Positions 26,318-64,000 of a DNA stretch of 64,000 bases are shown here, piece by piece. A program made the position numbers and the translations under genes. Under the pieces are notes generated by a model, which was not told the DNA's origin, made no database searches, and was given only the letters and a program-made list of their open reading frames with translations. Source of the DNA: a bacterium (GTDB taxonomy: Bacteria > Krumholzibacteriota > Krumholzibacteriia > Krumholzibacteriales > Krumholzibacteriaceae); assembly GCA_020350885.1 (NCBI GenBank), contig CP070727.1, positions 757,007 through 821,006 of the forward strand, in the 5' to 3' direction. Numbering within the stretch: position 1 is the first letter of the stretch; every line of letters begins with the position of its first letter.

Positions 26318-26808
26318 GGTCACTCCTTACCGTTTTATCGCCGTAACCCGTGCCTGTAACTGTCACAGCTCTGACTCACTCGGGTGTTCGGCAGGTGAAA
26401 TGCTGAACCATCCATGCGGTTCTACACAATTGTAAACGGTCGGTTTATTCCTCCTTTCGTTTGTGACTGAAAACCCCTATTGTCTCAAAAATTCACCCCC
26501 CACCCCCCATCCCTAAAAACATACAGGCTCGCTGTCATCCGTGCAGATACACGAATCCAACACACACGCGCCGTCCCTATTAGTGCATATACAAGGATAC
26601 TAGCCCGCCCGTTATCCGGTCGGGAAAAGGTGTGGCCCTTATTTAGTGCATGAATGCCCGCTTCAGTTCTTACCAGATCTTACCAGAGACTTGTAAGATC
26701 CCGTACCCCATCCCTACGTCTTGAACTGGATATAATATTGTACCCCATCCCCGGATCTACTTCAAGATCGTATTTCCCGCCTGCCCCGAGATGAAATACG
26801 GAGCAGCC

Positions 26809-34400: not shown

Positions 34401-35664
34401 TCCTCAGCTCGTGCTCGTCTTCCTCGAGGGAATCGACGAGGGTATAGCGCACCTCCTTTTCAACCGCATCGTAGTGCGACGGCCCCTGGGCGACGAGTGC
34501 ATCATCGATGTATAGCTTTATCTCGTCGAGGTCGAGCGGCGTGCTCTCGGAATGGGCGATCGATGCCGAGACCGTGGGACGGGAGGTGCCGATCACCGAG
34601 CCCTCCATCGGGCTCAGGTAGTACACGAGAGGATCACGGATGAAGAGGTACGAGTTGTAGTTATCGTTGGGATTGACGTCGGGATTCAGGGGATCGCTCA
34701 ACCAGATGTGGCCGTCTTGGACGAACTTGTACTCCTGATAGCTTTGCGGCAGCTTTTTGTCGATCGTCCAGATGCTGTCGCCGTCCGCATCCGACATCGG
34801 ATCGATTGCGGTGTCTATCACACCACCCGAGGGGTTGCACCAGCCGTTGAAGTCGCCGGCGAGGTTTACCGTCGATGCATCCGGCGCATAGAACCTGAAG
34901 CGCACGACGACCGAATCCGCCCCGGCGCCGATCGGGTCGGGTACGCCGTTTCCGTCCTCGTCGTAGCCAATGAGAACGGGATTGTCGAGGCTTAAGAGAT
35001 CGCTATCCTGATCGGCACCGAGCTCGTCACCGCTCCCCGCCCCGAGGGGTGTCGATGGGTCGAACTTGTCGGGGGCCCACCCGAGCCCGGCCGCAACCCT
35101 TATCCATCCGTTCACCTCGGTACCGATAACACTCCATGGGATGGTGATCTCCCAGCCGCCGATGCCGTTACTGTTGTGCCAGCCCTCACGAGAGGCGTTC
35201 TGCGAACCCGATATATGCACGGTACTTCCATCCCCCTGGATCTGCCGTACATCCGCACCGATCCCCGCCTCCATATCGCACACGGCGTGTACGAAGTCGG
35301 GATCCCATCCCTCACCCTGCGTACTGAAGCCGGGATAATAGTCGTTCTGCTCTACGCCGGTCGCTCGGGTGCTCGAGTCGATATAGATGAGGAAGACGTT
35401 ATTCACCGAGCTGTAGCCCTCGACACCGACGTAAAGGTTCGAGAGGTCCCAGCTCACATAGAGGTTCACGAGATCATTGTTCGGCCCCCAGGGTACATCG
35501 GTGTTAGAGGCCCTGAGCTCGAAGACGGGATTCCATTCACCGATGGAGAAATCACCGTCGACGACGATCGCACAATCCGCCGCCGCCGGAATGATGACAG
35601 TGATCGTCGCAGGAACGATGAGCGTGATCAGTGCTGTAACGAGGAGTGTCCGCTGCAGAGCCAT
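31411..35664 (-). CDS. Secreted multidomain GH57-family alpha-glucan enzyme (CBM9/DOMON-like, CBM48, Ig, internal FlgD-Ig, GH57, C-terminal FlgD/Por tail)
   Basis: F.FYAPDA.TV.LAGDFNGW (CBM48); FHANQ, FWNAERCW, CQDAE, AHQFEFG match the GH57 conserved regions; LHQNYPNPFNP tail. Confidence 0.78.
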   Translation of the reverse strand: MALQRTLLVTALITLIVPATITVIIPAAADCAIVVDGDFSIGEWNPVFELRASNTDVPWGPNNDLVNLYVSWDLSNLYVGVEGYSSVNNVFLIYIDSSTRATGVEQNDYYPGFSTQGEGWDPDFVHAVCDMEAGIGADVRQIQGDGSTVHISGSQNASREGWHNSNGIGGWEITIPWSVIGTEVNGWIRVAAGLGWAPDKFDPSTPLGAGSGDELGADQDSDLLSLDNPVLIGYDEDGNGVPDPIGAGADSVVVRFRFYAPDASTVNLAGDFNGWCNPSGGVIDTAIDPMSDADGDSIWTIDKKLPQSYQEYKFVQDGHIWLSDPLNPDVNPNDNYNSYLFIRDPLVYYLSPMEGSVIGTSRPTVSASIAHSESTPLDLDEIKLYIDDALVAQGPSHYDAVEKEVRYTLVDSLEEDEHELRIAVANTSGAAHADSSIFTVDLDFIPPVIVHGGVVDQPANRPVIVTATITDDEEVYEAKLNYRAFGSGDQYDAPFLEGLENEWYAEIPASFAIAGRTVLYHITASDRINTTRSPGSGEYNFDILADDVAPVIFENFASPALISPDGDSEDDVTRISFRLSEPVYVDCEIRTSGGALVKRLLTASLLDPGYRSVLWDGSDSLGVLVPNGNYRYRLGGIDLAGLAADRAVGDITVDRTADPGKLNVVLLFHANQTLNLQGDTANDVCFNGLVKVLREHPGSKFMLHFSGSLLHDLLWYDFRHNPSTIDMLRAGAADGQFEIVGSTYSQNIPYSTHMWDNNVQIDVQRTVIERSVSTTPVSFWNAERCWKQQLVPLIADNGYTATWVETHILYDSGTTMPEFAVRKTNLGIKELVIFNDDGAMIWLLDGAIDSGYTDDLVDYLSWLHSEDTYRDYVVCYCQDAEATGLWDYEHGEDPQPDWDNLDHVLDVLEGLSWVKLTTFSEYLETRHPTEMLSPIVDGQANWMVGPSQDAGYEDWFDFNENSPLLAFYRDFYDGWRNRVQAAQAAANGSLPGIRLIDHALRNYAAHQFEFGCINCGDFYCQDYHKLETIEASCLAAEYAASPVVDPQILMQDANGDSIQDVILVTPENLFVFSPYGGRLLYWFDLGRGEELVGNELFMWGLYYIGWRDHYTGGTYNDDYHYTVDYAWNAPYQYQAAQPWQRSYGIRKKCFNEFFTFGGMEIVNLLNDELTTTVLDDSVRFSFVSGDFIFVKSFYPVAGGLAVDYRVENRLGATRNIVHRIENSMNPALIEVMDYGRKSLKYYDGSDTTSTIGPGVTGVINVATGTAMEYTFDPAPDDLDGRRDVFALQLNPEYDYNLGGYQTKNYGFILSSRVVTGIERSGPTPSYPFRLHQNYPNPFNPSTRITYSVGRSGPVSLRIYDIAGRLVRILRRGIHEPGTYTAVWNGLNDEGRMLSSGIYFCRMKSADFSETRKLILLR

Positions 35665-38714: not shown

Positions 38715-39434
38715 TCAGTCGGCGTTCACCTTGAACCAGCCGTTCGGTGAGAGGGCCTCCTCTTCGAGTCCCTTGTATCCTTTGATATTCCAGAGATAGA
38801 TGGAGTCGGGTTCGAGGATGGTTGCGAGTGAATCGGGCACGACCCATGTACTGTCCTCGATCCGCTCCGCCCAGTAGATTTGTGTGAGATCAGCGGTGAA
38901 GATCTCAATGGAGTAGTACTCGTTCTCCCGCCGGGGATGCCAGCTGAACTGCTCGGGTACACGTTCTATTTCACCGAGTGGCGCCTCGAGTGTGATGCCG
39001 TACTCGACTACGGGCTCTCCACGCATCGGGCCGAATCCCGGTCCGAATCCGGGCGAAATACCCGACCTTTCGACTGCGAGGAATATGAGAATAACCGCCG
39101 CCGCAGCCGCAATTGGGGCCAGCCAATTGAAACTCAAACGTGTTACGGGAGCCTGCCGGCTCTCCTTTTTCCGTACCGCGACCGTAGGGAGAATGCGTTC
39201 CTTGAGGGCCCGTTCGAGCTTGAAGCAGGCCTCGGACCAGTTCGCTTCCTCGGCGAGCTCCCGGTCGGAACCGATCCGCTGAAACCGCCGGATGCGCTTG
39301 ACCTCGAGCCGGCACAGCAGGCATGAATCGAGATGCTGCTCGAGCCGATCAGCCGTGTCGTCTTCTGCACATCCACAGGCATACGCGGTCAGGATCTCGA
39401 GACCAGGATGCTCCGTGAAGTTATCCCTATCCAT
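38715..39434 (-). CDS. Membrane anti-sigma factor: ZAS (HxxxCxxC), TM, extracytoplasmic Ig/FN3-like domain
   Basis: HLDSCLLC; TM WLAPIAAAAAVILIFLAV; ATG 39434 overlaps the sigma stop by 8 nt. Confidence 0.82.
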   Translation of the reverse strand: MDRDNFTEHPGLEILTAYACGCAEDDTADRLEQHLDSCLLCRLEVKRIRRFQRIGSDRELAEEANWSEACFKLERALKERILPTVAVRKKESRQAPVTRLSFNWLAPIAAAAAVILIFLAVERSGISPGFGPGFGPMRGEPVVEYGITLEAPLGEIERVPEQFSWHPRRENEYYSIEIFTADLTQIYWAERIEDSTWVVPDSLATILEPDSIYLWNIKGYKGLEEEALSPNGWFKVNAD

Positions 39435-40014
39435 TTCCAAACCCCTCGTGTTCAATGAGCCGCTTGAACTTTCTTCTGGCGTTCTGCAGGAGGGTGCGTG
39501 CCCCCGTAATATTCTCACAACCCAGTATCTTTGTAATCTCATTCACCGTCATTCCATCCCTGTAGTGGAGGATGAATACCTCCAGCTCATCACCAGGTAT
39601 GAACTCCCTCGCGGAGGCCAGAATGCGTTCGAGATCGCCGACCAGGCCGAGCTCCCTGTCAAACTGATTATCGACCGGGTCGGGCACTCCGTCTGCATCC
39701 ACCGAGAGCAATCGCCGCCGCCACTGTTCTCGCTTCTTCGCAAGCTCGCTGAGACAGTGGTTGCTGGTGACCCGGTATGCCCAGGTCGAAAACATCGAGA
39801 GACCGGAGAACTTGGCGATGTTCCTGAATATCTTGATGAATATCTCCTGGGTGAGATCAACGGCCTCCTCCTCATCGTGCGTATAATTGTAACACCAGAG
39901 ATAAATCCGCTTACTGTATCGCCTGAACAACTCCGTGCAGGCTTCCTCAGAGGCGCTCTCTGCGATGATACCCGAAAGCTCCTCGTCGCTTGCACACCGT
40001 ATCTCTGTGTTCAC
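39427..40014 (-). CDS. ECF sigma-70 factor
   Basis: Region 2 DLTQEIFIKIF..FSTWAYRV..NHC; region 4 HTH. Confidence 0.93.
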   Translation of the reverse strand: MNTEIRCASDEELSGIIAESASEEACTELFRRYSKRIYLWCYNYTHDEEEAVDLTQEIFIKIFRNIAKFSGLSMFSTWAYRVTSNHCLSELAKKREQWRRRLLSVDADGVPDPVDNQFDRELGLVGDLERILASAREFIPGDELEVFILHYRDGMTVNEITKILGCENITGARTLLQNARRKFKRLIEHEGFGNG

Positions 40015-40079
40015 CCCTTAGACACTCCCCAGGGAAGAAATGACATAATATTTCTCCCATTATTTTTCGAGCTGAGAGA

Positions 40080-43000
40080 TTAGTCTAACTCCTGTGAATC
40101 GTATATGATATTCCCATCACCAACCAGTACAAAGGTGGCCCAGAAAGCAGTTCGCCCCGAATCCCTCCACCCGAGTGCCTCGAGCTGGGTATCCCTGAGT
40201 GCCGAGGCGGCGGCGTTTCCCTCGCGGAGCCGGCGATAGAAGGAGAGCATGAACCGTCCCGTATACCGGTCGGGGACATCCATCTGCGTGGCGAGCACAC
40301 CGTGCGCTCCGGCATAGAGGAACGCCTGGGTGAGACCTGTAATCCCTTCCCCATAGGCCAACACGCCACCGGCCGACTTGCATCCTGATAGAACTACAAG
40401 AGATGCATTGAGCCTGAGCCCTGCCACCTCGTGCCACTGGAACAGTCCGTCCTCGGTAGCTATTTCAACCATATCCACCGAGCCGTCGCGAGTAGCACGC
40501 TCCTCCCTGCGCATCCGTGCATCATCACCGGATCTTCCCGGCAGGATCCCGAACTCACTTTCAGGATTCAAGACGATGAAGGAACGTCTTACATCCTCGT
40601 TATCAACATAGATATGGGAAGCGATGTGAATAATCTCGGCGTTCCCGATGGGGCTCTCTTTGAATGAGCGCTCACCGGCACCGGTACCGGTCAGAATGAA
40701 GGAAGAGGGGAAAAGGCGTGCAACGGACCGTGCCTCCTCCGATGCATGGGGGAGCAGTTCAATCGGAATGTCCGTGAATGGGTAAACACGCTTGCGTTTC
40801 AAGGTACCCGTGTTGCCGGCTCCCTCGGCACCGAGAGCGATAATATCGTAGTCCAAATGCTTCCCGCCCTCACTTCGTGAGGCGAACCGACGTCTGAGGT
40901 ATGATAGGGACCGTAGCGAGGGAGTGTAATAGATCCGGTGCCGTTCGACCAGATAGCCTTCGTCACTGCGGAGCAGGGAGAAGGGAAGGCGGTTGAGCAA
41001 TCCGTCAGGCACGATAACGAGCGTTTCTCCGTCTAGATCCCCCTCCACGGGGCCCAGCAGCAGTTCATAGAGCTCCCGCTCGGCCGCGTGGAGAACTCCC
41101 GCCGGCAGGGAGTACGAGGGACGGGATAGCCGTTTTCCGGTTTCGACCGCCTCCTCGTGGGTCTGCCTGAGCAGCTGAAGAAACCGTCCCACGCGCTCCT
41201 CGATCTCTTTCCGTGGCGGGAGTGGATGAATCGAGAAGATACCTCCCCGAACGCTGAAGAGGTATGAACCCTCCCGCCCGAGGAAGTACGACAGCATCCG
41301 CTCGGATTCACGGAGACTGGCAACGAGCCCATCGAGCTCATCACCGGCAGGATAGAGCGCCGCCGTGTATGCCTCGTTCTGAGCTGCCATACGAACACGG
41401 AGCCCGACGAACTCCCGCTCGAGAGCAGTGACCTGATCCAACAGTTCACGGCGCTTCTCTCCCGAGATCGAACCGTCCTGGAGCCTTCCCTGTAGGAACG
41501 TGAGCTTGGCGATGAGATCCCGTTCCTCACCCACGAGCTCGCCGGCACCACCCCGTTCGATTCTATGCAGGGCCTCCCGCATGAGTGCAGCCAGTATCTG
41601 TGCCCGGGCGCGCTCGGTATACGTGAAAGCCCGGCGTACCGCCCCCCGATCCTCACCCGTTTCGAGGATGAGGGATACCATGAGCTCGTAGGGAACGATC
41701 GCTGGCCGCAGCATGTGGCGCTGGAGCTCGTCGAGCCCCACGCTCCGTCTGAGCGATTCAACACTCACTATCGCACGTTCGAGCATGGAGGCAGCCTCTC
41801 CGTAATCCCCACGTCTGTAGTACAGCTCTGCCAGCCTCACCAGAGATTTCCAGACCAGTTCCTGCAACCCGTTCTCGTCAGCGATAGCCAGCGCATCTCC
41901 GGTCGAGGCGAGTGCTTCATCGATCGATATATCGGTATTACCATAGAGATAGAGTGAACGTGCCTGGATATGCGCCTCCCCCTTGTCAGCCAACAGCCCG
42001 ATTGATCCCTCCAGCATCGCGCGGGCCCGAGCGGATTCCCCGCGCTGGATGTAAACGGAGGCAAGGTTGTTGGTTGCCCAGATCAGGTCAGAGCGATCCT
42101 GGGTTCCGCTCAGCACATCGAGGGTTCGCCGATAGAAGGCCTCGGCGAGATCAGGCCTTCCGGCGGCCAGATAAACCGAACCCATGCCGCTCGTGACGCG
42201 AAAGAGGAGATCACGTTCGTTGCGATCCGTGGCGATGGAAAAGGCACGCTCGTAATGCTTCATCGACTCCGTGTAGTTACCGAGATAGAAGTAAACCGAA
42301 CCGATGCTGAAATGAACGGCGCCAACACCGACACTGTCCCCCAGTTCCTCGTAGATCGCCATCGCACGATGCTCATGGGCAAGGGCCTCCCGGTAGCGGC
42401 CCTGGAGATCGTAGACCATACCGATCGAATTGAGACACCAGGCTACACCCTTGCGGTCACCTAGCTTCTCCCTGACCTCGTAAGCCTGCCGGTAGAACCG
42501 TTCGGCTTCGGAGAAGTTACCCAGGTTGTGGTTCGCCAAAGCGAGACCGCCCAATGTCCAGCTCAGACCGTAGAGGCTTCCCATCTCCTCGTAGACAACG
42601 CGACACCGCTCGTAATGGTCTATCGCTTTGGAATAGTCACCGAGCATCGTGAGATTGTAGCCGAGCCGAAGGCGCGCACCGAGCGCCCCCCAGCGGTTCC
42701 CCCCGTCCGTGTGACGTTCCAGCGACTCTGTGAAGAGATCGAGCGCCTCTTGCCGCTCACCCTCCGCCTCCGCTATCGCACCGAGCCCATAGAAGACATA
42801 ACCGAGGAGCCAGCCCGACCGACACGACACCGCAAGCTCGCGTGACTCCTCTAAGTGTTCCTTCGCCGTAGCAAGGTTGCCCATCCGCGTTTCGGCCTGC
42901 CCCAGGTTGTTGAGGATCGCTGCGGTCCTTTCCACGGTGCCGAGAACGCGTTCCTCGACGAGGGCCCCGCGGTACAGCTCGGCCGCTTCCCCGATCCGCT

Positions 43001-43835
43001 GCTGCTTCTCGCGGATTCGCCCCAGGCCATTCAGGCAATAGCTCCGAACCTGCCGGTGACCACCTTTCTCGGCCCGGCCGAGTGCTTCCCGGTACAGACT
43101 GTCAGCGGCTACCAGATCGTCCGTCAGGTTTTGCGCCTCGGCCCGAAACGCCGCCAGCTCGGCATCCATGCGAAGGAGGAAGTGTAATGCCTTTTGCAAT
43201 ACAGGAGTACGGTCGTCCGGCTTGTCCGCCCTCTCTACTACCCTGGCGGAGAGTAACTCGATACATTTCCCCGCATCGGTTACGGCACGAAATGCGGCGT
43301 CTGGATTACGGGCTCCGAGGAAGCTCTGCGCCTCGCGCCTTCTGAGCACAGCCGCTGAAAGTGTATCGCCCGCGCCAAGCGCAAGCAGCGCCGCCTCACC
43401 GTACGCATCGCCGGCAGCCGCAAAGTCCCGTGCGATGTGGTGCTTCAATGCGCCCGTGTAGAGCTGCAGCATATCACAGTGCGGTTCGGTTTGACCCTCC
43501 GCACAATCCTCAAGAAACGCGATTGCACTATCACTCCGGCAGGATCGCAATTCCGCTTCGACGAGCCCCTCGGCTATTTCGATCCGGCAGGGATCTTCCA
43601 TGACGAATCGCTCGAAGAAGAGCAGTGCTGCAACGTTATCACCGGCATCGAGTAAAAGCGCTCCTTCGCCTGCTCTCTGGAGGCGTTCCTCGATACCATC
43701 CGAACGCTCGGATCCGCCGTATCCGGGGTGAATGTTACGATTCTGGTATGTTCTTCTGGAAAATCCGGAAAAGGGCACGGATAGTATTAAGACGAGAATG
43801 AATAAAGACCGGGCAGTGGATGTCAAACGTTTCAT
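40080..43835 (-). CDS. TPR-CHAT caspase-like protease with N-terminal signal/anchor
   Basis: MKR+LFILVLILSVPF N-terminus; more than 10 TPRs; IVPDGLLNRLPF, IHIASH (His 40614-40616), LSGC (Cys 40380-40382), FWATFVLVGD. Confidence 0.93.
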   Translation of the reverse strand: MKRLTSTARSLFILVLILSVPFSGFSRRTYQNRNIHPGYGGSERSDGIEERLQRAGEGALLLDAGDNVAALLFFERFVMEDPCRIEIAEGLVEAELRSCRSDSAIAFLEDCAEGQTEPHCDMLQLYTGALKHHIARDFAAAGDAYGEAALLALGAGDTLSAAVLRRREAQSFLGARNPDAAFRAVTDAGKCIELLSARVVERADKPDDRTPVLQKALHFLLRMDAELAAFRAEAQNLTDDLVAADSLYREALGRAEKGGHRQVRSYCLNGLGRIREKQQRIGEAAELYRGALVEERVLGTVERTAAILNNLGQAETRMGNLATAKEHLEESRELAVSCRSGWLLGYVFYGLGAIAEAEGERQEALDLFTESLERHTDGGNRWGALGARLRLGYNLTMLGDYSKAIDHYERCRVVYEEMGSLYGLSWTLGGLALANHNLGNFSEAERFYRQAYEVREKLGDRKGVAWCLNSIGMVYDLQGRYREALAHEHRAMAIYEELGDSVGVGAVHFSIGSVYFYLGNYTESMKHYERAFSIATDRNERDLLFRVTSGMGSVYLAAGRPDLAEAFYRRTLDVLSGTQDRSDLIWATNNLASVYIQRGESARARAMLEGSIGLLADKGEAHIQARSLYLYGNTDISIDEALASTGDALAIADENGLQELVWKSLVRLAELYYRRGDYGEAASMLERAIVSVESLRRSVGLDELQRHMLRPAIVPYELMVSLILETGEDRGAVRRAFTYTERARAQILAALMREALHRIERGGAGELVGEERDLIAKLTFLQGRLQDGSISGEKRRELLDQVTALEREFVGLRVRMAAQNEAYTAALYPAGDELDGLVASLRESERMLSYFLGREGSYLFSVRGGIFSIHPLPPRKEIEERVGRFLQLLRQTHEEAVETGKRLSRPSYSLPAGVLHAAERELYELLLGPVEGDLDGETLVIVPDGLLNRLPFSLLRSDEGYLVERHRIYYTPSLRSLSYLRRRFASRSEGGKHLDYDIIALGAEGAGNTGTLKRKRVYPFTDIPIELLPHASEEARSVARLFPSSFILTGTGAGERSFKESPIGNAEIIHIASHIYVDNEDVRRSFIVLNPESEFGILPGRSGDDARMRREERATRDGSVDMVEIATEDGLFQWHEVAGLRLNASLVVLSGCKSAGGVLAYGEGITGLTQAFLYAGAHGVLATQMDVPDRYTGRFMLSFYRRLREGNAAASALRDTQLEALGWRDSGRTAFWATFVLVGDGNIIYDSQELD

Positions 43836-43864: not shown

Positions 43865-43873
43865 ATTATAGCA
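43865..43873 (-). promoter_or_regulatory. Extended -10 element TGCTATAAT upstream of the CHAT-sigma-anti-sigma operon
   Basis: Exact TGnTATAAT about 30 nt before ATG 43835. Confidence 0.65.
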
Positions 43874-43924: not shown

Positions 43925-44923
43925 TTATCCCCCCTCCCCCGCCGGCATCGATCGCCAGAGCTTCCAGATATCGTCCAAGAGTATCCGTTTCAGTCGAAGC
44001 ATCTCGTCCTTGGAGCCACTGCGCATGATCCCCGCAGCAGCACCCACATGGCCGTCGCCGATATTGAGCGAGCGCATGATCTCTCCGATGTCCTTGCCGT
44101 GCCTGCGCCCGGTCATTCTCATCGAGAGCGACATGGATACAGCGAAGTCGTTCGTTTTTCTTCCTCCGCGAAAGATTGCGTTCAGCGTAAGGACTCCCAA
44201 GGCACCGGGGTGCAGGAGGTATGCGAGATTCTTCACAACGCGAGGGCGGCGCTTGTGGTGCGTGAAGTCGAGGATGATGAGCTCATGGTCTGTGTCTTTC
44301 TCGATGAACGAGACAGACTTGCGAATAAAATCGAGCATGCGCTGCTCCTCTACGCGGTACCGTTCGAGATTCGCTGCAACCTCGGGATCCTCGAGCACCG
44401 ACGGCAGCGGCAGATCCCGCACGAGCCCGGTGAGCTTGTACAGGTACTTCGTTTGATCCCGTGGCGTGGCGAAGTAGGCCTTGAGACTCATATCGACCAG
44501 TTTCCCCGGCGTCTCCGTCCGCCATTCTTCGACGGATCGATAATCAAAGGAATCGATGGTGTCGGCCTCGGCAACGGCCTCCGGGAAATGGGCGGGAAGA
44601 TCTTCCCCGCGCTCGGTAAGGTACTCGAATACAACCCGCGCACATGAAGGTTTCCCGTCGAACCGCCCGGGGATCGAATCGGGATCGATCCCTCTCAAAC
44701 GAAGCGACTCAAGATTGCCGGGATGATGGTCGAACCAGAGCCCGCACTCGAGCGGATAGGGAAGATCACAGACGATATCACGCGAATCGATCGAGATCTC
44801 GGTTTTGTCGATCGCATTTGGTCCGGTGAAGACGATCCGTTCGCATCCAAAGACGTACGAGCAGAGCGCCGCCGATACGATTCCATCGAAGTCACCGTGT
44901 GTTATGATGCGCTCGTAGCTCAT
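43925..44923 (-). CDS. DHH-family phosphoesterase (exopolyphosphatase/nanoRNase-like)
   Basis: THGDFDG, CDLP, WFDHH, GDGH..AAG motifs. Confidence 0.75.
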   Translation of the reverse strand: MSYERIITHGDFDGIVSAALCSYVFGCERIVFTGPNAIDKTEISIDSRDIVCDLPYPLECGLWFDHHPGNLESLRLRGIDPDSIPGRFDGKPSCARVVFEYLTERGEDLPAHFPEAVAEADTIDSFDYRSVEEWRTETPGKLVDMSLKAYFATPRDQTKYLYKLTGLVRDLPLPSVLEDPEVAANLERYRVEEQRMLDFIRKSVSFIEKDTDHELIILDFTHHKRRPRVVKNLAYLLHPGALGVLTLNAIFRGGRKTNDFAVSMSLSMRMTGRRHGKDIGEIMRSLNIGDGHVGAAAGIMRSGSKDEMLRLKRILLDDIWKLWRSMPAGEGG

Positions 44924-52006: not shown

Positions 52007-52146
52007 AAAGGAGTGTAATTGAAAAGGATAGGGGCATAACCGATTGACGCCTTCGATCCCCTTTGATACAATCCGAATCATCGAACGGCACAGCTCGATT
52101 GTATGCTCCCGGCACATTGCACGTGTCCTCCACAAACGGGATTCTC

Positions 52147-54480
52147 ATGATCGGTAAGACCGTTTCACATTACACAATCCTCGAAGAACTCGGCCGCGGA
52201 GGCATGGGAGTTGTGTACAGGGCCGAGGATGTCAAGCTTCAGCGCACCGTTGCCCTCAAGTTTCTCCCCCCCGAACTCACGAGCGATCCAGAGGCGAAAG
52301 AACGCTTCATCAACGAAGCCAGGACCGCCTCCGCACTCGACCATCCCAATATCTGCACGGTCCACGAGATCGACGAGACGGACGACGGCCAGATCTTCAT
52401 CTGTATGGCCCACTACGATGGCGAACCGCTCAGGAACAGGATCGACCGGGGACCTGCAGGTCTCAACGAGGCATTCCATATTGCAGAGCAGATCGCCGAA
52501 GGTCTCTCCCGTGCGCACGAGCGGGGAATCGTTCACCGGGATATCAAGCCGGCCAATATCATCGTGACGGATCGGGACGAGGTCAAGATCGTCGATTTCG
52601 GCCTAGCGAAGCTCGCCGGAAAGACGAAGCTCACAAAAGAGGGTACAACGCTCGGCACGGTCGAGTACATGTCACCGGAGCAGGCGAGGGGTCGAGAGGC
52701 CGACCACAGAACGGACATCTGGTCCCTCGGCGTCATACTCTACGAGCTGCTTACCGGGAGGCCGCCGTTTAAGGGGGAGTATGAGCAGGCGATAATGTAT
52801 GCGATCATAAACGAGGAACCCGAGCCGATCACCGCCCAACGCGCCGGCATTCCCCTCGAGCTGGACAGGATATGCGCCAAGGCACTTGTCAAAAATCCCG
52901 ACGAACGTTACCAGCATATAAGCGATCTCCTGGTCGACCTGCGGGCGGTACATAAGCAGATAGAAAGCGGCACGACCGCGCAGCCGGCCATTGTGACAGC
53001 GCCGGGGAGGAACAAGTGGCTCAAGCCGGTCACCGCAGCCGCCATTGCCGTCGTCGCATTCGTCCTGGTTTACTTCTACGTCTTGGCAGACCGCAGTGAA
53101 GCGATCGATTCGATCGCCGTCCTTCCGCTCGAGAACATCTCCCGGGATCCCGCTCAGGAGTACTTCGCCGATGGAATGACGGAAGCGCTCATAGCGGATC
53201 TCGCCAAGATAGGCGCACTGCGTGTGATATCACGTACCTCGATCATGCGGTACAAGGAGACCGATCTCGCGCTTCCCGAGATCGCAAAGAAGCTAGATGT
53301 CGATGCGATCATCGAGGGTTCAGTACTGCTGGCGGAAGGTCGTGTGCGCATAACCGCACAGCTCATAGAGGCGGCGAACGACCGCCACCTCTGGGCCGAC
53401 AGCTACGAGCGTGATCTACAGGATGTCCTTGCGCTCCAGCGTGATATCGCAAAAGCGATCGCCCGCGAAGTAAAGGCCAAGCTCACACCCGCTGAGGAGG
53501 CCACATTCGAACGTGCCGGCACTGTCGACCCTCAAGCGCACGAATTATACCTGAAGGGACGTTATCACTGGAACAAGAGGACCGAGGAGGATCTTCGCAG
53601 GAGCATCGAGTACTTTCAGAAAGCCATCGAGAAAGAGCCCGGTTACGCCCGGGCCTACGTTGGACTGGCCGAGACATACGCGGTAATCGCCGACTGGGGA
53701 TTCTCGCCTCCGAGTGAGATGTATCCGAAGGCGAAGGAGACGGCAGAGACGGCGCTCGAAATCGACCCCAACCTCGCCGAGGCACTCACTACAGTTGCCG
53801 CCGTCGAACACCTCTATTACTACAACCATGAAAAGTCGGAGGAAATATACCGTCGTGCCATCGAATTGAATCCGAACTATGCAACTGCCCACCAATGGTA
53901 TGCAGAGTTCCTCTATCATATGGGGCGTTTCGACGAGGCGATCTCGGAGATCAACCGGGCCCTCATGCTCGATCCCCTGTCACTCATAGCTAACGCAGTG
54001 AAAGCTGCGATATATTATTACTCCCGGAACTACGATGAGGCGATCAGGCTATGCAAGGAGAACCTGGAACTCGACAGCAGTTTTTATCTATTCCTCCAAC
54101 TGCTCATGCTGAGCTATCTCGAGAAGGAGATGTACAATGAAGCATACGAGATTACAAAAAAAATGATTATACTTTCGGGCGCCGATGTATCTCTCATAGA
54201 CGAATTCGAAAGAGCATATCGTACCGGTGGGTATGATGGAACTCTGAGATGGCAAATACAAACATATTCCAGAATCCTCAGGCAACCCTACAACGAATCG
54301 TACTACGTCGCCCTGGCATATGCGAGACTGGGATATGCTGATAGCGTCTTTGTATGGCTCGAAAAGACCCTAGAAAACAGTTCCCTCTACATAATGGAAA
54401 TTACCATTGATCCTGCTTTAGATCCCCTACGATCCGATCCGCGATACAACAGGCTGCTGAAAAAGATCAAACTGGATTAG
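52147..54480 (+). CDS. Hanks-type Ser/Thr kinase with TM, TolB_N-like domain and TPRs
   Basis: LGRGGMGVVY, VALK, HRDIKPAN, DFGLA, YMSPEQ; TM; SIAVLPLEN...EYFADGMTE; likely ATG 52147. Confidence 0.93.
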   Translation: MIGKTVSHYTILEELGRGGMGVVYRAEDVKLQRTVALKFLPPELTSDPEAKERFINEARTASALDHPNICTVHEIDETDDGQIFICMAHYDGEPLRNRIDRGPAGLNEAFHIAEQIAEGLSRAHERGIVHRDIKPANIIVTDRDEVKIVDFGLAKLAGKTKLTKEGTTLGTVEYMSPEQARGREADHRTDIWSLGVILYELLTGRPPFKGEYEQAIMYAIINEEPEPITAQRAGIPLELDRICAKALVKNPDERYQHISDLLVDLRAVHKQIESGTTAQPAIVTAPGRNKWLKPVTAAAIAVVAFVLVYFYVLADRSEAIDSIAVLPLENISRDPAQEYFADGMTEALIADLAKIGALRVISRTSIMRYKETDLALPEIAKKLDVDAIIEGSVLLAEGRVRITAQLIEAANDRHLWADSYERDLQDVLALQRDIAKAIAREVKAKLTPAEEATFERAGTVDPQAHELYLKGRYHWNKRTEEDLRRSIEYFQKAIEKEPGYARAYVGLAETYAVIADWGFSPPSEMYPKAKETAETALEIDPNLAEALTTVAAVEHLYYYNHEKSEEIYRRAIELNPNYATAHQWYAEFLYHMGRFDEAISEINRALMLDPLSLIANAVKAAIYYYSRNYDEAIRLCKENLELDSSFYLFLQLLMLSYLEKEMYNEAYEITKKMIILSGADVSLIDEFERAYRTGGYDGTLRWQIQTYSRILRQPYNESYYVALAYARLGYADSVFVWLEKTLENSSLYIMEITIDPALDPLRSDPRYNRLLKKIKLD

Positions 54481-59502: not shown

Positions 59503-60462
59503 GTGGTAAGTATGGATCTTATAAAGCGCTTGGGACCGATGGCACTTGGGAGCCGCCTGAAGCGTCTCACTATCCGAATGAACAAAGACATCTCACGCCT
59601 CTACCGGGAGCTTGGGATAGAGTTCGAAGCACGCTGGTTCCCGGTCGCATATCTCTTAAGGCAGCAGTCTCCACTATCAATTTCCGAGATTGCTGATGAG
59701 CTCAACTACAGTCACACTGCGATCAAGAACTTCACCAACGAGATGCTCCAGAAGGGTCTTCTCGAATCCAACCGGGACCCTTCCGATAGACGCAGGCGAC
59801 TCCTGCAACTTTCCAGGATGGGGCGACATGCCGTGGACCGAATGGTCCCCGTGTGGCGAGAAGTACGCGCCGTAGCAGGCAACCTGGTTGAATCCTCAGA
59901 ACCCAACCTGCTCGCCTCTATCGAGGGCATCGAGCAACAACTTGATCAGAAGGAGATGTACCCCAGGATTCGTGAACGCCTGAGACCGCGGCTTCTCGAG
60001 GCAATCGAGATACTGGACTACCGTCCGGCATACAAGAAGTATTTCTGGTCTCTCAACTATGAGTGGTTGAAGAAATACTTCCGTGTGGAGCGTGCCGACG
60101 AAAAGCCGCTTTCGGATCCCAAGGGGCAGATCATCAACAGGGGAGGTGTTGTACTCTATGCTAGACTTGACGGCCAGGTGGTCGGGACTGCGGCACTCGT
60201 GCGCCACGAAGATAACGTATTCGAGCTCACGAAGATGGCGGTTACCGCGACCGCCCGCCGGCGAATGGTCGGTACAAAGCTTACTCTGGCAATCATCGAG
60301 CGGGCAAAATCATGTGGCGCAGAGCGCTTGTTTCTCGAAACGCACCCAAAGCTCAAACCGGCACAGAGATTATACGAAAAAATCGGCTTTGAGAGGATTG
60401 ATGAAAGCCCCATCCCACCGGTTTTCGATCGGCGCAGGATTATCATGAAAATCGAACTTTGA
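59503..60462 (+). CDS. Bifunctional MarR wHTH-GNAT acetyltransferase
   Basis: ALGSRLKRL, SISEIA..L.YSHTA, DRRRRLLQLS; LNYEW, ELTKMAV; start 59503 or 59512. Confidence 0.9.
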   Translation: MVSMDLIKRLGPMALGSRLKRLTIRMNKDISRLYRELGIEFEARWFPVAYLLRQQSPLSISEIADELNYSHTAIKNFTNEMLQKGLLESNRDPSDRRRRLLQLSRMGRHAVDRMVPVWREVRAVAGNLVESSEPNLLASIEGIEQQLDQKEMYPRIRERLRPRLLEAIEILDYRPAYKKYFWSLNYEWLKKYFRVERADEKPLSDPKGQIINRGGVVLYARLDGQVVGTAALVRHEDNVFELTKMAVTATARRRMVGTKLTLAIIERAKSCGAERLFLETHPKLKPAQRLYEKIGFERIDESPIPPVFDRRRIIMKIEL

Positions 60463-60493: not shown

Positions 60494-61963
60494 GTGAAAA
60501 CACGATTGATTCTCGCTACCTTATTAGCTTCCTTCACCGTTATAGGCTTAAACGGTTTCCTCACCAAACCGGTTTTTGGTGAAAAGGATTTACAGGAAAA
60601 AATCGATGAAATCGCCGAGGCCGAGGCAAAGTACGACCTCTTCTCGGGATCCGTGCTCGTTGCGAAGAATGGGGAGACTATCTATGCCAAGGGATTCGGG
60701 TATGCAAACAAAGAGTACCGTATCCCGAATTCACCCGAAACACAGTTCAATATCAGCTCTGTCCAGAAGACATTCATCGCAATGATGATCATGCAGCTCT
60801 ACCAGGAAGGTAAACTCGACCTGGCAGATCCCCTGGCGAAGTATTTTCCCGATTGTCCTTATAGCACTGCCGGCAAGATAGAGATCAAACACCTGCTCAA
60901 CCATACATCCGGTCTCGGCGGTTACAGAGATAACGAAGAATACCAGGCACAATCAGAAAACTACACATGCATCGACGACGTCCTTCCCCTTGTCTATAAG
61001 CAGGAGCCCGCTTTTGCCCCGGGTGAACGGTTCAGATATTCCAATGCCGGTGTGCTCTTTCTCAAGGCCATCATCGAAAGAATCGAAGGGAAAAAATTGA
61101 AGCAGGTTCTCGATGAACGGATTCTGCAGCCACTGGGGATGGACCTCACAACATTTTTTCGCGGTGGGGAGCTTCTCCCTCACCGTGCAACGGCGTATTC
61201 GCTCGCAGAAGACGGTGAAACCTACCTCCGTGTCCTATCAGAGCCGTCAGCCTATGCTGGAGGCGGTATCTATACGACCGCTTTTGATCTGCTCAAGTTC
61301 GACCAGGCGCTGTACGGAGAAGAGCTACTCAGCGAGAAGAACAAGAAGATCATGTTCACACCTGTCGAAGCGAGCCCGCATTATGCGTACGGCTGGGTCG
61401 TCGTCCCGTTCGGGGGTACGACGGTTATCTATCACGGTGGGAGCTCGGGAGGTTTCAATTCCGAATTCAGACGGTATCCGGAGATCGGCTATACCGTGAT
61501 CGTGCTGTCCAATTACGAGGGCGCCGCATTCGAACTGGCAAACAAGATCGATCGTATGCTTCTGGGATTACCGTACTCGCTGGCGACCGAATCCGATTTA
61601 TACTACCAGCGGGGCATATATTTCCAGAGACGCGATAACTACCACAAAGCGATTGAATTCCTTGAAAAAAACACAGCCCGAGCCGAGCCGCACCTGCCTT
61701 CGCTCTACCAGTCGGCACGCTCCCGTATCATGGGTGAGTTTGACCAGGAGAAGGCTATCGAGCAACTAGACCTGTATATCAAGCTTGCCGATGAGTCGAC
61801 GCGGCCATCCGCCGCGGCTGCCTGGTGGCGCAAAGGAGTCGCGTACGAGCAACTCGGGACGTTACAGAAAGCGATCGAGTGCCATAAAAAATGCCTAGAG
61901 CTGGATCCGGGCTTCGAGGATGCAATAGAAGCGCTCAAGCGACTCGAGACCGAGGAACAGTGA
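60494..61963 (+). CDS. Serine hydrolase (class C beta-lactamase/PBP-like) with C-terminal TPR
   Basis: FSGSVLVA, SxxK (SVQK), LLNHTSG, YSN, HGG; TPR tail. Confidence 0.88.
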   Translation: MKTRLILATLLASFTVIGLNGFLTKPVFGEKDLQEKIDEIAEAEAKYDLFSGSVLVAKNGETIYAKGFGYANKEYRIPNSPETQFNISSVQKTFIAMMIMQLYQEGKLDLADPLAKYFPDCPYSTAGKIEIKHLLNHTSGLGGYRDNEEYQAQSENYTCIDDVLPLVYKQEPAFAPGERFRYSNAGVLFLKAIIERIEGKKLKQVLDERILQPLGMDLTTFFRGGELLPHRATAYSLAEDGETYLRVLSEPSAYAGGGIYTTAFDLLKFDQALYGEELLSEKNKKIMFTPVEASPHYAYGWVVVPFGGTTVIYHGGSSGGFNSEFRRYPEIGYTVIVLSNYEGAAFELANKIDRMLLGLPYSLATESDLYYQRGIYFQRRDNYHKAIEFLEKNTARAEPHLPSLYQSARSRIMGEFDQEKAIEQLDLYIKLADESTRPSAAAAWWRKGVAYEQLGTLQKAIECHKKCLELDPGFEDAIEALKRLETEEQ

Positions 61964-62090: not shown

Positions 62091-62792
62091 TCATGGGAAC
62101 TCGAGAGATGCGGCATCGGATGAACCGATCTCGTCACCCTGCTCGAGGGCGACGACGCGCCAGATCAGCTTGGCTGGTAATTGGGCTGGAAACATTGATC
62201 GGCCAACAATCAGTGCGGTTTCGTTTGTCGGCTCGAGGCGGACGATTTCGTTGAGGTTCCTGTCATAGAAACGCACCTGGTACGCGTCGGCGCCGGCCAT
62301 CGGCGTCCATTCCAGACGGACGCCTTCTCCGGATATCCTCTGTGGTGTACTCAACGTGAGTGGTTGCGAAACTTCGGCTTGCGACGGGCCCCGCAGCACG
62401 GTCTTATCGGGCGTCCACGGGTGCCACCATAACACGCCGTATACGCCGGCTGCGATGATCACCAATAGTGCGGCAACCCACGCCGGACGTAAGTAGAACG
62501 TTTTCATGATTCGCGGTAAAAAATCCTTCCAGGCATGATCCTTTGTGCCGGCTGCATCCCGGACCTCCTCCCGTAGCACTCCGATCTCCGACGCCAGGAA
62601 TGCCGTGAGGCGGGCATCGGCTTCATCCGGATCCGAACCGGCGGTGATTTCCTCATTCAAGAACCCCTGATAAGACGCCAGAATGGCGCTGCAGCGCGGA
62701 CACGCTTCTACGTGACGGCGCGTGGAATCGTCGGCCGGAAGCTCGAGCACTTCCGAAATTCGCTTGACCTCGATACAATCCTTACTCATCAC
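62091..62792 (-). CDS. Membrane anti-sigma factor (ZAS-TM-Ig-like), paralog of 38715-39434
   Basis: HVEACPRC; TM WVAALLVIIAAGVYGVLWW; overlaps the sigma stop. Confidence 0.82.
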   Translation of the reverse strand: MMSKDCIEVKRISEVLELPADDSTRRHVEACPRCSAILASYQGFLNEEITAGSDPDEADARLTAFLASEIGVLREEVRDAAGTKDHAWKDFLPRIMKTFYLRPAWVAALLVIIAAGVYGVLWWHPWTPDKTVLRGPSQAEVSQPLTLSTPQRISGEGVRLEWTPMAGADAYQVRFYDRNLNEIVRLEPTNETALIVGRSMFPAQLPAKLIWRVVALEQGDEIGSSDAASLEFP

Positions 62793-63381
62793 CAGACTCC
62801 TTCAATGCGTTCCTGAGTTTTCTCCGCGCTTTCTGTAATAATCCCCGCGCCCCCGAAGCGGATTCGATTCCGAGAACCCAGGTGATCTCGTCAATCGGCA
62901 TGCGTTCGAAACATCGCAACCAGATTGCTCTCTGCTCTTCCGGTTCCAATGTCGTGCGTATCAGCGTATATATCCGCTCTTCGTATTCGCGTTCCTCCAG
63001 CCGCCTGACGGGATCGGGATTCGGTGCCTGGACAGTGTCGAAGTCGGCCTCGCCTTCCTCGAAAAGGGATACACGGTGCATCTCATTCAAGCAGCGGTTT
63101 CGTGCGATCGCGAACAGCCACGTTGAAAATTTAGACTTGCCGCCGAATGAATCGAGCGCTCTCCAAGCGCGCAGCAATACCTCCTGACTCATGTCGAGGG
63201 CCCGTTCGTGGTCCCTGACATAACGATAGCACCACAGGTATACCGCTCTCTGATAGCGGCCGAGCAGTTCCGCACCGGCCGCCCGGCCTGCTTCGGATTC
63301 AACCAACGACTGTACGATCCGAGCCAGCGCTTCGTCGGTCAAATCCGGGTGCCCTCTGTTTCTATCGGACATATTCATCAA
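62782..63381 (-). CDS. ECF sigma-70 factor, same subgroup as 39427-40014
   Basis: YLWCY, DMSQEV, FSTWLF.IARNRC, GARGLLQKARRK. Confidence 0.93.
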   Translation of the reverse strand: MMNMSDRNRGHPDLTDEALARIVQSLVESEAGRAAGAELLGRYQRAVYLWCYRYVRDHERALDMSQEVLLRAWRALDSFGGKSKFSTWLFAIARNRCLNEMHRVSLFEEGEADFDTVQAPNPDPVRRLEEREYEERIYTLIRTTLEPEEQRAIWLRCFERMPIDEITWVLGIESASGARGLLQKARRKLRNALKESGDE

Positions 63382-63388
63382 AGAAGAA

Positions 63389-64000
63389 TCACGCAGCCGG
63401 GACAGTTTTTTTCATTTTTTTATGTCGAAGCCAAAACGCGAAACCCACAAACACCACCACGGCTCCCACTCCTGCCAGCCATAACGGATTATAATTGCTT
63501 GCCTCGGCGACTTCCAGCTCGACACTTATGTTGCCGTCTCCCACCGCCACGAAACCCGCCCAGTAAAACGGATGACGGGTTTTGCGCCGGGACCGGATAG
63601 CGATCTGCGCTTCCCGAAGCGCCGCCGCCGCTGGCCGGCCCGCATCCAGCGATTGATAAAATATCTTCATCAGGTCCGATGTCACCAGATCGTCCACCGG
63701 CCACAAGGTCGCCACCGTCACGGGAACTCCTGCACTTAGAAAGGCAGAGGTCAATCCACTCAAGCCTTCTCCGACACTCAACCGCCCCAATGCGGATTCG
63801 CAGCCGGACAGCACCACCATCTTTGCACGTATCCGGCTGCCGGCAATATCATTCGCACGAATGTAAGGATCGAGCTGGATGTCGGACGGACCAAGTTCAT
63901 CTCGTTCCGGTGCCGATCTCGAATCGCCGTCATCGACCCTCATAATATCCGTTCGTGCCCTCTGGCCCGATTGCGCCGGAGGCTCTCCCAGGAGGATGCC
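63389..64000 (-). CDS. C-terminal part of a CHAT protease with a C-terminal TM anchor (5' end outside the window)
   Basis: Frame open to 64000; VVLSGCES, GEGLSGL..AFL.AG, TLWPVDD, HPFYWAGFV.VGD; then WLAGVGAVVVFVGFAFWL-RHKKMKK. Confidence 0.9.
   Translation of the reverse strand, partial: GILLGEPPAQSGQRARTDIMRVDDGDSRSAPERDELGPSDIQLDPYIRANDIAGSRIRAKMVVLSGCESALGRLSVGEGLSGLTSAFLSAGVPVTVATLWPVDDLVTSDLMKIFYQSLDAGRPAAAALREAQIAIRSRRKTRHPFYWAGFVAVGDGNISVELEVAEASNYNPLWLAGVGAVVVFVGFAFWLRHKKMKKTVPAA

Follow-up and report, generated by a model that had tools for sequence, protein, structure and literature searches.

Two diverged copies of a conserved TPR-CHAT, sigma and anti-sigma gene triad in a Krumholzibacteriaceae genome, a possible split relative of DdvA/DdvS

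What does a caspase-like protease of the CHAT type do directly in front of a sigma factor and its anti-sigma factor? The question is raised by a 64,000-nucleotide stretch of a Krumholzibacteriaceae genome (contig CP070727.1 of assembly GCA_020350885.1, positions 757,007–821,006; the whole stretch is called the window below). In its last 1.9 kb (62091–64000) three tightly packed genes on the minus strand follow each other: the 3' end of a CHAT gene, an extracytoplasmic function (ECF) sigma gene and an anti-sigma gene. The matching order and strand are found at 38715–43835, where the TPR-CHAT gene is complete. We refer to the latter set as copy 1 and to the set at the window end as copy 2; they are 18.3 kb apart. 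Our answer, to which we give about an even chance, is that each copy is a three-gene switch from envelope to transcription, an unfused (split) relative of DdvA/DdvS of Myxococcus xanthus in which the CHAT protein is the likely site-1 protease. The features of the two copies are as follows.

63389 to >64000, minus strand: 3' end of the copy-2 TPR-CHAT gene, last 203 codons and stop, running off the window (Pfam CHAT E 2e-34, profile positions 176–289 of 289)
63794–63817, minus strand: catalytic-Cys motif VVLSGCES of the copy-2 CHAT; this Cys does not vary in alignments of 15 and of 45 CHAT domains and corresponds to C907 of DdvA
63428–63484, minus strand: C-terminal hydrophobic helix of the copy-2 CHAT, 19 residues, LWLAGVGAVVVFVGFAFWL
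63407–63427, minus strand: basic tail RHKKMKK after this helix
62782–63381, minus strand: copy-2 ECF sigma, 199 residues from TTG, true start maybe 1–3 codons later (Sigma70_r2 E 1e-18)
62091–62792, minus strand: copy-2 anti-sigma, 232–233 residues, with zinc domain, transmembrane helix, linker and FN3 ectodomain
62691–62780, minus strand: zinc ligands of the copy-2 anti-sigma, a Cys in DCIEV followed by HVEACPRC (H-x3-C-x2-C), together CHCC
62424–62480, minus strand: single transmembrane helix of the copy-2 anti-sigma, WVAALLVIIAAGVYGVLWW, preceded by the basic residues R, K and R
62388–62399, minus strand: VLRG (V-L-R-G) in the juxtamembrane linker of the copy-2 anti-sigma, nine residues or so beyond the helix on the outer side, a candidate cleavage or recognition site
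62094–62370, minus strand: FN3-like ectodomain of the copy-2 anti-sigma, about residues 141–232 (predicted local distance difference test, pLDDT, 84–95)
40080–43835, minus strand: copy-1 TPR-CHAT protease, 1251 residues (CHAT E 5e-55 (4.8e-55), many TPR families)
43758–43835, minus strand: signal-like N-terminus of the copy-1 TPR-CHAT, MKRLTSTARSLFILVLILSVPFSGFS
40614–40634, minus strand: His motif IIHIASH of the copy-1 CHAT
40374–40397, minus strand: Cys motif VVLSGCKS of the copy-1 CHAT
39427–40014, minus strand: copy-1 ECF sigma, 195 residues (Sigma70_r2 E 7.5e-16)
38715–39434, minus strand: copy-1 anti-sigma, 239 residues from the ATG at 39434, with FN3-like ectodomain; identical to database protein P0253
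within 38715–39434, minus strand: conserved His (EHPGLEIL) and HLDSCLLC of the copy-1 anti-sigma
39072–39125, minus strand: transmembrane helix of the copy-1 anti-sigma
39018–39029, minus strand: PMRG of the copy-1 anti-sigma

A preliminary description of this DNA had regarded the genes at the window end as a second, diverged copy with the same order and strand, and gene calls and pairwise comparisons bear this out. Hidden Markov models (HMMs) that we built ourselves find exactly two CHATs, two sigmas of the triad kind and two anti-sigmas across the 64 kb. The two sigmas are 35% identical (E 2e-35) and both contain the signatures YLWCY and GAR-x-LLQ-x-ARRK, as had been pointed out, while the C-termini of the two CHATs share 46% identity over 115 residues (E 1e-26). 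The anti-sigmas do not find each other in BLASTP. A profile of 17 homologues of the copy-2 anti-sigma nevertheless aligns with copy 1 over 191 columns in hhalign (95.3% probability, E 2e-8), beginning at the zinc motif and covering the ectodomain to its end, and also recovers it with hmmsearch (1e-9). The common layout that had been described for these proteins despite their low identity is thus a matter of distant homology and not of chance. In copy 2 the sigma gene begins 7–16 nt past the CHAT stop codon and the anti-sigma open reading frame (ORF) overlaps the sigma stop by 8–11 nt; an ECF sigma translationally coupled to a single-pass anti-sigma is directly predicted.

Both sigmas meet the models for ECF (group IV) sigma factors. 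Sigma70_r2 scores 67.3 bits for copy 2 and 58.1 bits for copy 1 against a cut-off of 24, and TIGR02937 (sigma70-ECF) scores 86.8 and 80.7 bits, respectively, against a cut-off of 42.9; Sigma70_r4_2 alone stays under its cut-off (17–18 versus 25.7 bits). The PDB matches of the sigma are generic ECF factors of the RpoE/SigW/AlgU type.

The anti-sigmas are hardly visible to the domain databases. That of copy 2 has no match in Pfam or NCBIfam and that of copy 1 none in Pfam; against curated NCBIfam the latter reaches only 28.1 bits with NF052375, for which the cut-off is 100. Among the 17 homologues of the copy-2 protein, C5, H26, C30 and C33 are invariant and make up a CHCC zinc site. In the relatives of copy 1 a histidine near residue 9 replaces the first cysteine, and the ligand set is probably HHCC. 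The motif with its upstream ligand, the helical bundle and the adjacency to the sigma directly predict that the N-terminus is a cytoplasmic zinc-binding anti-sigma (ZAS) domain. The AlphaFold2 model of the copy-2 protein (mean pLDDT 72) has N-terminal helices at 8–15, 22–29 and 31–47 with pLDDT around 85, a helix at 103–120 that corresponds to the transmembrane segment, a segment at 121–140 with pLDDT below 50 and a confident seven-strand sandwich at 141–232. When this sandwich is compared with the PDB using Foldseek, the top 30 matches all have E ≤ 1e-3 and are mostly fibronectin type III domains, with target-normalised TM-scores of at most 0.73. The same FN3-like ectodomain is present as 10–18 tandem repeats in the very long proteins P0157 (2182 residues) and P0240 (932 residues), so it is a common extracellular module and is not specific to anti-sigmas.

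The segment of low pLDDT contains the V-L-R-G motif. Among 167 representatives of the family, V is found in 64%, L in 83%, R in 95% and G in 77%, while none of the flanking linker positions exceeds 35%. The PMRG of copy 1 is aligned onto V-L-R-G by hhalign, and the copy-1 orthologues carry PMRG or IVRG. The family itself is large. A word search returns 25 homologues of the copy-2 protein and the database holds eight of the copy-1 protein; an exhaustive profile search yields 413 clusters (50% identity) at E ≤ 1e-30 and 1479 at E ≤ 1e-10. The 413 are nearly all 210–250 residues long and match end to end. None of the homologues found has a functional name or a Pfam domain.

Is the association of the three genes conserved? 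It was examined from three independent anchors: the CHAT fragment, the sigma and the anti-sigma. A protein search with the CHAT fragment gives 82 matches, mostly metagenomic fragments, the best of which is named Candidatus Krumholzibacteria. The closest of these mostly end in a helix and a basic tail, and two longer contigs show CHAT, sigma and an unannotated ORF of about 230 residues in succession. The sigma-anchored scan, with one genome per species, covers 80 loci, five of them at 44–50% identity (Krumholzibacteriota, Eisenbacteria and an uncultured bacterium) and 75 at 36% or less. By the CHAT HMM, four of the five closest loci (L003–L006) have a CHAT immediately ahead of the sigma on its strand, and none of the 75 generic ECF loci has one within 10 kb. 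For the anti-sigma-anchored metagenome scan the profile came from a 10-sequence subset, the alignment of 17 being too diverse. It finds 17 loci at 32–69% identity; in the 13 that extend far enough upstream the order is always CHAT, sigma, anti-sigma, and the remaining four end within or just before the sigma.

Loci of the copy-1 type agree. In all three with enough upstream DNA (L102–L104) a gene of about 1174–1190 residues precedes sigma and anti-sigma; a fourth contig (L105) ends upstream and is not counted. Pfam marks the upstream gene as TPR-CHAT in L103 and L104. The 1174-residue gene of L102 lacks a Pfam record; its C-terminus shares 67% identity with that of the copy-1 CHAT, and we infer that it encodes a CHAT as well. 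Locus L104 is also syntenic with the window. Altogether more than 20 independent loci, spread over several candidate phyla, have the TPR-CHAT as a gene of its own upstream of the sigma. The genes around the triads otherwise differ between loci; the conserved unit is the triad.

The three proteins also cluster congruently. Each copy-2 protein is nearest to its counterparts in L084 and L086 (72–74% identity for the sigma), while each copy-1 protein is nearest to those of L102 and L104 (64–66% for the sigma), followed by L103, in nearly the same order. For all three proteins the two copies in the window are more distant from each other than from these foreign orthologues. The matching nearest relatives indicate an old duplication of the whole module, and no mixing of parts is seen. 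Identity to the nearest orthologues points to the anti-sigma as the fastest-diverging of the three proteins and to the sigma as the slowest. A Mantel comparison of pairwise identities over 16 triads gives correlations of r 0.92–0.94 between the three proteins (p about 2e-4). As all three parts diverged together, copies 1 and 2 are probably insulated from each other. The proposal that the triad is a recurring, diversified family and no chance cluster is thus upheld by the linkage counts at related loci and by the congruent clustering, and comparison of sigma, anti-sigma and CHAT for co-divergence gave the same picture. We are confident that the triad is a conserved signalling module with an extracytoplasmic CHAT.

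On which side of the membrane does the CHAT protein lie, and is it an enzyme? In copy 2 the fragment within the window opens at GILLGEPP, right after the place of the His motif in orthologues; it holds the catalytic Cys, and the corresponding His position is just past the window end. The N-terminal 730 or so residues also lie beyond it, and features of that part are read from orthologues. The CHAT C-termini of L084 and L086 are 67–72% identical to the copy-2 fragment, and full-length CHAT orthologues have about 930–970 residues (928–970). The CHAT of L084 (970 residues) begins with MRPVELRAIWRRLPIVVCAAAIVTAGTLPAPA-TPQ, has TPRs, the His motif EVIHVAAHIEVNDERPWRSGILLGEPP (EVIHVAAH) and the Cys motif VVLSGCES, and ends in ...VVFWLRRKKLKKSFPVA (...WLRRKKLKK); identities between this locus and copy 2 are 70% for the anti-sigma, 74% for the sigma and 67% for the CHAT C-terminus. 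The contig of P0084, an anti-sigma 76% identical to that of copy 2, has a 928-residue TPR and CHAT gene and is syntenic with the window, with adjoining beta-lactamase-TPR and MarR-GNAT genes. The signal-like N-terminus, the TPRs and the catalytic His that were looked for in full-length orthologues of the copy-2 CHAT are all present.

Signal-like N-termini are found in at least eight full-length related CHATs, and 15 of 17 related CHATs have a C-terminal helix with an Arg/Lys tail. The hydrophobic helix and RHKKMKK that had been reported for copy 2 are there, at 63407–63484. The helix is absent from the CHATs of copy 1, L104 and L005 and present in the copy-1-type L103, which makes it an optional tether. 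Positively charged residues precede the hydrophobic stretch at the N-terminus and follow the helix at the C-terminus, which fits only a topology with both ends in the cytoplasm and the TPR-CHAT body outside (in-out-in). We predict that this body is periplasmic, unattached in copy 1 and held at the inner membrane by its C-terminal helix in copy 2. The earlier suggestion of a membrane-anchored CHAT with an extracytoplasmic protease domain thus finds support in the conserved helix and tail, the signal-like N-termini of orthologues, the charges and the solved periplasmic precedent of DdvA.

The H-x-A-x-H motif and the Cys are invariant across 15 aligned CHAT domains, L084 and L086 among them, and the copy-1 CHAT holds both the His and the Cys of the dyad. 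The AlphaFold2 model of the copy-1 CHAT domain (predicted TM-score 0.81) has a caspase-like fold. Foldseek places DdvA first (8rot_A, E 2.7e-10, 19% identity), followed by Csx29 (E 1e-9), separase, SAVED-CHAT and gingipain R. A CHAT-domain profile run against the PDB also has DdvA as its best match (8rot_B, E 1.6e-8), before separase (1e-4) and Csx29, for which the similarity is marginal (0.25), and it aligns the His/Cys pair with H862/C907 of DdvA. With full-length single CHAT sequences the search of PDB sequences returns TPR proteins only; DdvA is reached with the CHAT-domain-only profile.

DdvA is therefore the nearest known relative in sequence and fold. It is a single-pass anti-sigma with a cytoplasmic zinc-binding (CHCC) three-helix bundle and a long flexible linker (PMC11506125; PDB 8ROT, 8RW5). 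Its periplasmic TPR-CHAT of about 900 residues has a His/Cys dyad, and in the dimer the active site of each protomer faces the linker of the other. The authors propose that, upon a signal, CHAT cleaves the linker as the site-1 step before RseP; for DdvA without TPR-CHAT, RseP-dependent degradation has been shown (PMC11506125). The triads share with DdvA/DdvS the ECF sigma, the single-pass CHCC zinc anti-sigma, the flexible juxtamembrane linker and a TPR-CHAT that is predicted to be periplasmic and to have a His/Cys dyad, the copy-2 His being read from orthologues. The mechanism proposed is also the same: CHAT as site-1 protease on the linker, then RseP. Unlike in DdvA, the TPR-CHAT is made as a protein of its own that begins with a signal-like segment and, in copy 2, also has a C-terminal anchor, and the anti-sigma bears a small FN3 domain in place of the TPR-CHAT of about 900 residues. 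Moreover, the linker of the triads has the conserved V-L-R-G, and the sigma is not detectably close to DdvS. Strict membership of the DdvA family was rejected, the anti-sigma of 232–239 residues ending in FN3 and the TPR-CHAT being a separate gene. The surroundings differ as well: no island of cyclic-oligonucleotide-based antiphage signalling (CBASS) or of clustered regularly interspaced short palindromic repeats (CRISPR) is seen nearby, and the triads are flanked by housekeeping and envelope genes that are not conserved between loci. PADLOC returns TPR matches only and no link to a defence system. DdvA-like fusions have been reported only from Myxococcota and one Comamonas (PMC11506125), whereas the hosts of the triads are Krumholzibacteriota-like or Eisenbacteria-like with at least two paralogous copies per genome.

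One metagenomic locus has a second full TPR-CHAT gene directly after the anti-sigma (L094:5717–8575, contig Ga0105092_10001687), giving the order CHAT, sigma, anti-sigma, CHAT. The additional protein is 953 residues long, starts with a signal-like segment, retains both residues of the His/Cys dyad and has a helix at its C-terminus. As DdvA works as a dimer, the two paralogous CHATs of this locus might pair.

How would such a split switch work? The TPR array would detect a signal from the envelope or from outside, most probably some protein or peptide, and this sensing would switch on the CHAT domain. At the periplasmic face of the inner membrane, where sensor-protease and anti-sigma would meet, CHAT would cleave the linker at or near V-L-R-G, most simply after the arginine, and the FN3 domain would be removed (site-1). 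An RseP-type site-2 protease would next cleave inside the membrane, the zinc domain would be degraded by cytoplasmic proteases and the sigma would be freed. Cleavage after Arg is proposed by analogy with separase and gingipain R, which both belong to clan CD and cleave after this residue. Somewhat less probable, in our judgement a little short of even, is the full form of the proposal: that the free-standing periplasmic caspase-fold TPR protease is a dedicated, trans-acting site-1 protease that cuts after the Arg of V-L-R-G, that the two copies are founding examples of a large unannotated family, and that this family forms several insulated paralogous sets per genome.

A number of observations weigh against the split switch with CHAT as site-1 protease. 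CHAT cleavage was not observed for DdvA itself, and dyad mutants behaved like the wild type under the conditions tested (PMC11506125). DdvS is not among the PDB matches of the sigma. The window contains no gene for a site-2 protease, and neither an ECF-type promoter nor a conserved regulon is seen beside the triads. CHAT specificities vary, Csx29 cleaving after Met or Leu, and cleavage after Arg is a guess. Export of the CHAT proteins is predicted from hydrophobicity and charge only, and the N-terminus of the copy-2 gene itself falls outside the window. The Mantel correlation is weak evidence, as shared phylogeny would correlate any linked genes. Finally, the linkage has one exception: the sigma of L007 (Eisenbacteria Bin_233) shares 49% identity with the copy-2 sigma, yet the 2.2 kb ahead of it contain no CHAT. 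This contig has a length of 2.6 kb, with membrane-protein ORFs upstream of the sigma (L007:2243–2572), and stops inside the sigma.

The alternative that survives best, although we hold it to be unlikely, is that the TPR-CHAT is a sensor or co-receptor that binds the FN3 domain or the V-L-R-G linker and gates another site-1 protease, as RseB does for RseA, or that it signals by a conformational change while its protease acts on itself or on other envelope proteins. Strict linkage and co-divergence call for an interaction but not for cleavage, both TPR and FN3 are well known as protein-binding modules, the motif conserved within the disordered linker could serve for docking, and the lack of a phenotype of the DdvA dyad mutants under the conditions tested fits this picture too. 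However, the His/Cys dyad is invariant in every CHAT examined, which argues that catalysis is under selection. The best-conserved linker residue is an Arg followed by Gly, a typical scissile site for Arg-specific clan CD enzymes, and no other protease is conserved in the neighbourhoods of the triads.

A little less probable still is that CHAT is the output. The sigma/anti-sigma pair would then answer another cue, for example thiol or oxidative stress acting on the zinc domain, and switch on its own operon; the exported protease encoded first in it would serve nutrition, antagonism or the quality control of the envelope. Autoregulation by ECF sigmas is common, often of operons that also hold target genes, and conserved neighbours may be regulators or targets (PMC7826278). 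Zinc anti-sigma domains can act as redox sensors, and other exported proteases are encoded in the genome, for instance a type IX secretion subtilase at 21926–26323. The CHAT gene, however, lies upstream of the sigma (7–65 nt gap), and a common two-block (ECF-type) motif was not found upstream of 11 CHAT genes. A housekeeping-type extended −10 element, TGcTATAAT, occurs instead about 30 nt before the copy-1 CHAT start (43865–43873 of the window, minus strand) and also in L104, which suggests that the operon is constitutively transcribed and not from an ECF promoter. Anti-sigma ectodomain and CHAT diverge into matching lineages, which would be unexpected if the substrates of CHAT were unrelated; the C-terminal tether puts the copy-2 CHAT in the membrane of the anti-sigma, and the fused architecture of DdvA favours a regulatory role.

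It is improbable that the C-terminal helix and tail of CHAT are a sorting signal cut by a sortase-, exosortase- or rhombosortase-like enzyme, in which case the protein would reside on the cell surface or outer membrane and not beside the anti-sigma. In general shape such signals are likewise a helix and then a basic cluster at the very C-terminus, copy 1, L104 and L005 do without the helix, and the tails do give weak NCBIfam matches to GPS-CTERM, MYXO-CTERM and part of the LPXTG anchor. These matches cover only the generic helix-and-tail part, and all are below their cut-offs except for the tails of L097 and L103, which score 18.5 and 16.4 bits against the LPXTG-anchor cut-off of 15.9. Neither the alignment nor the NCBIfam sorting-domain models (PEP-CTERM, GlyGly-CTERM, MYXO-CTERM, LPXTG and similar) reveal a conserved signature motif ahead of the helix, and the chain continues for 5–8 residues past the basic cluster. 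Processing as a sorting signal is thus a minor alternative, and it would also place the CHAT domain outside the cytoplasm. That the three genes lie together by chance or mere synteny and are functionally unrelated, for which the close L007 sigma lacking an upstream CHAT could be quoted, we reject as extremely improbable and contradicted by the linkage counts: the same order in more than 20 independent loci of several candidate phyla with otherwise unrelated neighbours, and 0 of 75 control ECF loci.

How does the proposed split switch relate to other systems in which proteolysis frees a sigma factor? In classical regulated intramembrane proteolysis DegS and RseP act on RseA, and PrsW and RasP on RsiW. 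Like RseA and RsiW, the anti-sigma of the triads is a single-pass protein whose ectodomain would have to be removed before a site-2 protease can act, and the sigma resembles RpoE, SigW and AlgU. DegS is a PDZ serine protease and PrsW a membrane metalloprotease, both encoded elsewhere; unlike these, the enzyme proposed for site 1 comes from the same operon as the anti-sigma and combines a caspase-fold cysteine protease with a TPR sensor. In Craspase the cytoplasmic TPR-CHAT Csx29 cleaves Csx30 and thereby relieves inhibition of an ECF-like sigma (PMC10028731). Common to both are a TPR-CHAT beside an ECF-type sigma and an inhibitor, and the fold match noted above. In contrast to the triad, Craspase is cytoplasmic, RNA-guided and bound to Cas7-11, and Csx30 is soluble and not a zinc-binding transmembrane anti-sigma. 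A Craspase-like CRISPR module was also tried as an explanation of the window and rejected: Pfam finds no cas gene among the 20 larger neighbouring ORFs scanned, and the CHATs have signal-like N-termini. Actinobacterial ECF54 is reported to have CHAT, subtilase and carboxypeptidase neighbours and is described without an anti-sigma (PMC8999054, PMC7826278). Control by a neighbouring CHAT-type protease is suggested from gene context there as here, but the triad always comes with a zinc anti-sigma, its hosts are candidate phyla related to the Fibrobacterota–Chlorobiota–Bacteroidota (FCB) lineages, and the presence of an anti-sigma does not fit the published description of ECF54.

Several other genes of the window deserve mention. 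Directly upstream of the copy-1 CHAT (43925–44923, minus strand) is a 332-residue gene without a Pfam match that starts MSYERIITHGDFDGIVSAAL. It is 73% identical to its counterpart at the same position in L104 and is more conserved than any part of the triad. A sodium:solute symporter (26809–28305) and an M24 peptidase (29021–30205), both on the minus strand, lie about 9 kb from the copy-1 triad, whereas in L102 symporter and M24 peptidase genes directly follow the triad of this type; this difference suggests a rearrangement or insertion between the two genes and copy 1. Two very large exported proteins carry type IX secretion C-terminal sorting domains and mark the host as a diderm of FCB-related lineages: the S8 subtilase mentioned above, with four PKD domains (21926–26323, minus strand), and a GH57-type glycoside hydrolase with carbohydrate-binding modules (31411–35664, minus strand). 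A Ser/Thr protein kinase with C-terminal TPRs is encoded at 52063–54480 (plus strand), and a kinase-TPR gene also adjoins the L001 triad. At 6565–8838 (minus strand) there is a 757-residue phosphatase of the SpoIIE/PP2C type. Convergent to the copy-2 anti-sigma is a protein resembling class C-type beta-lactamases and penicillin-binding proteins, with a signal-like start and a C-terminal TPR (60494–61963, plus strand); this gene and the neighbouring MarR-GNAT fusion (59503–60462) are both kept in the P0084 contig.

The module is not a new kind of system, and the idea is less new than it seemed, as DdvA already provides the parts and the general concept. What is new is the unfused three-gene architecture, the large unannotated family of FN3-bearing anti-sigmas and the conserved V-L-R-G, as are the optional C-terminal tether, the Krumholzibacteriota-like and Eisenbacteria-like hosts and the presence of paralogous copies in one genome.

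Signal routes that free ECF sigmas across a membrane are known for few types of protease. DdvA is the one described system with a periplasmic caspase-like TPR-CHAT, and self-cleavage within a fused dimer is hard to demonstrate. As enzyme and substrate are separate in the triads, a caspase-type site-1 step can be tested here with two purified proteins. If the proposal is true, the triads would prove directly, and for the first time, that sigma-factor signalling across a membrane begins with caspase-like cleavage, a step still hypothetical for DdvA. The split module is widespread in uncultured lineages (Krumholzibacteriota, Eisenbacteria and relatives). It offers natural pairs of paralogues for studying how specificity stays apart, and a functional lead for several hundred clusters of unannotated anti-sigmas.

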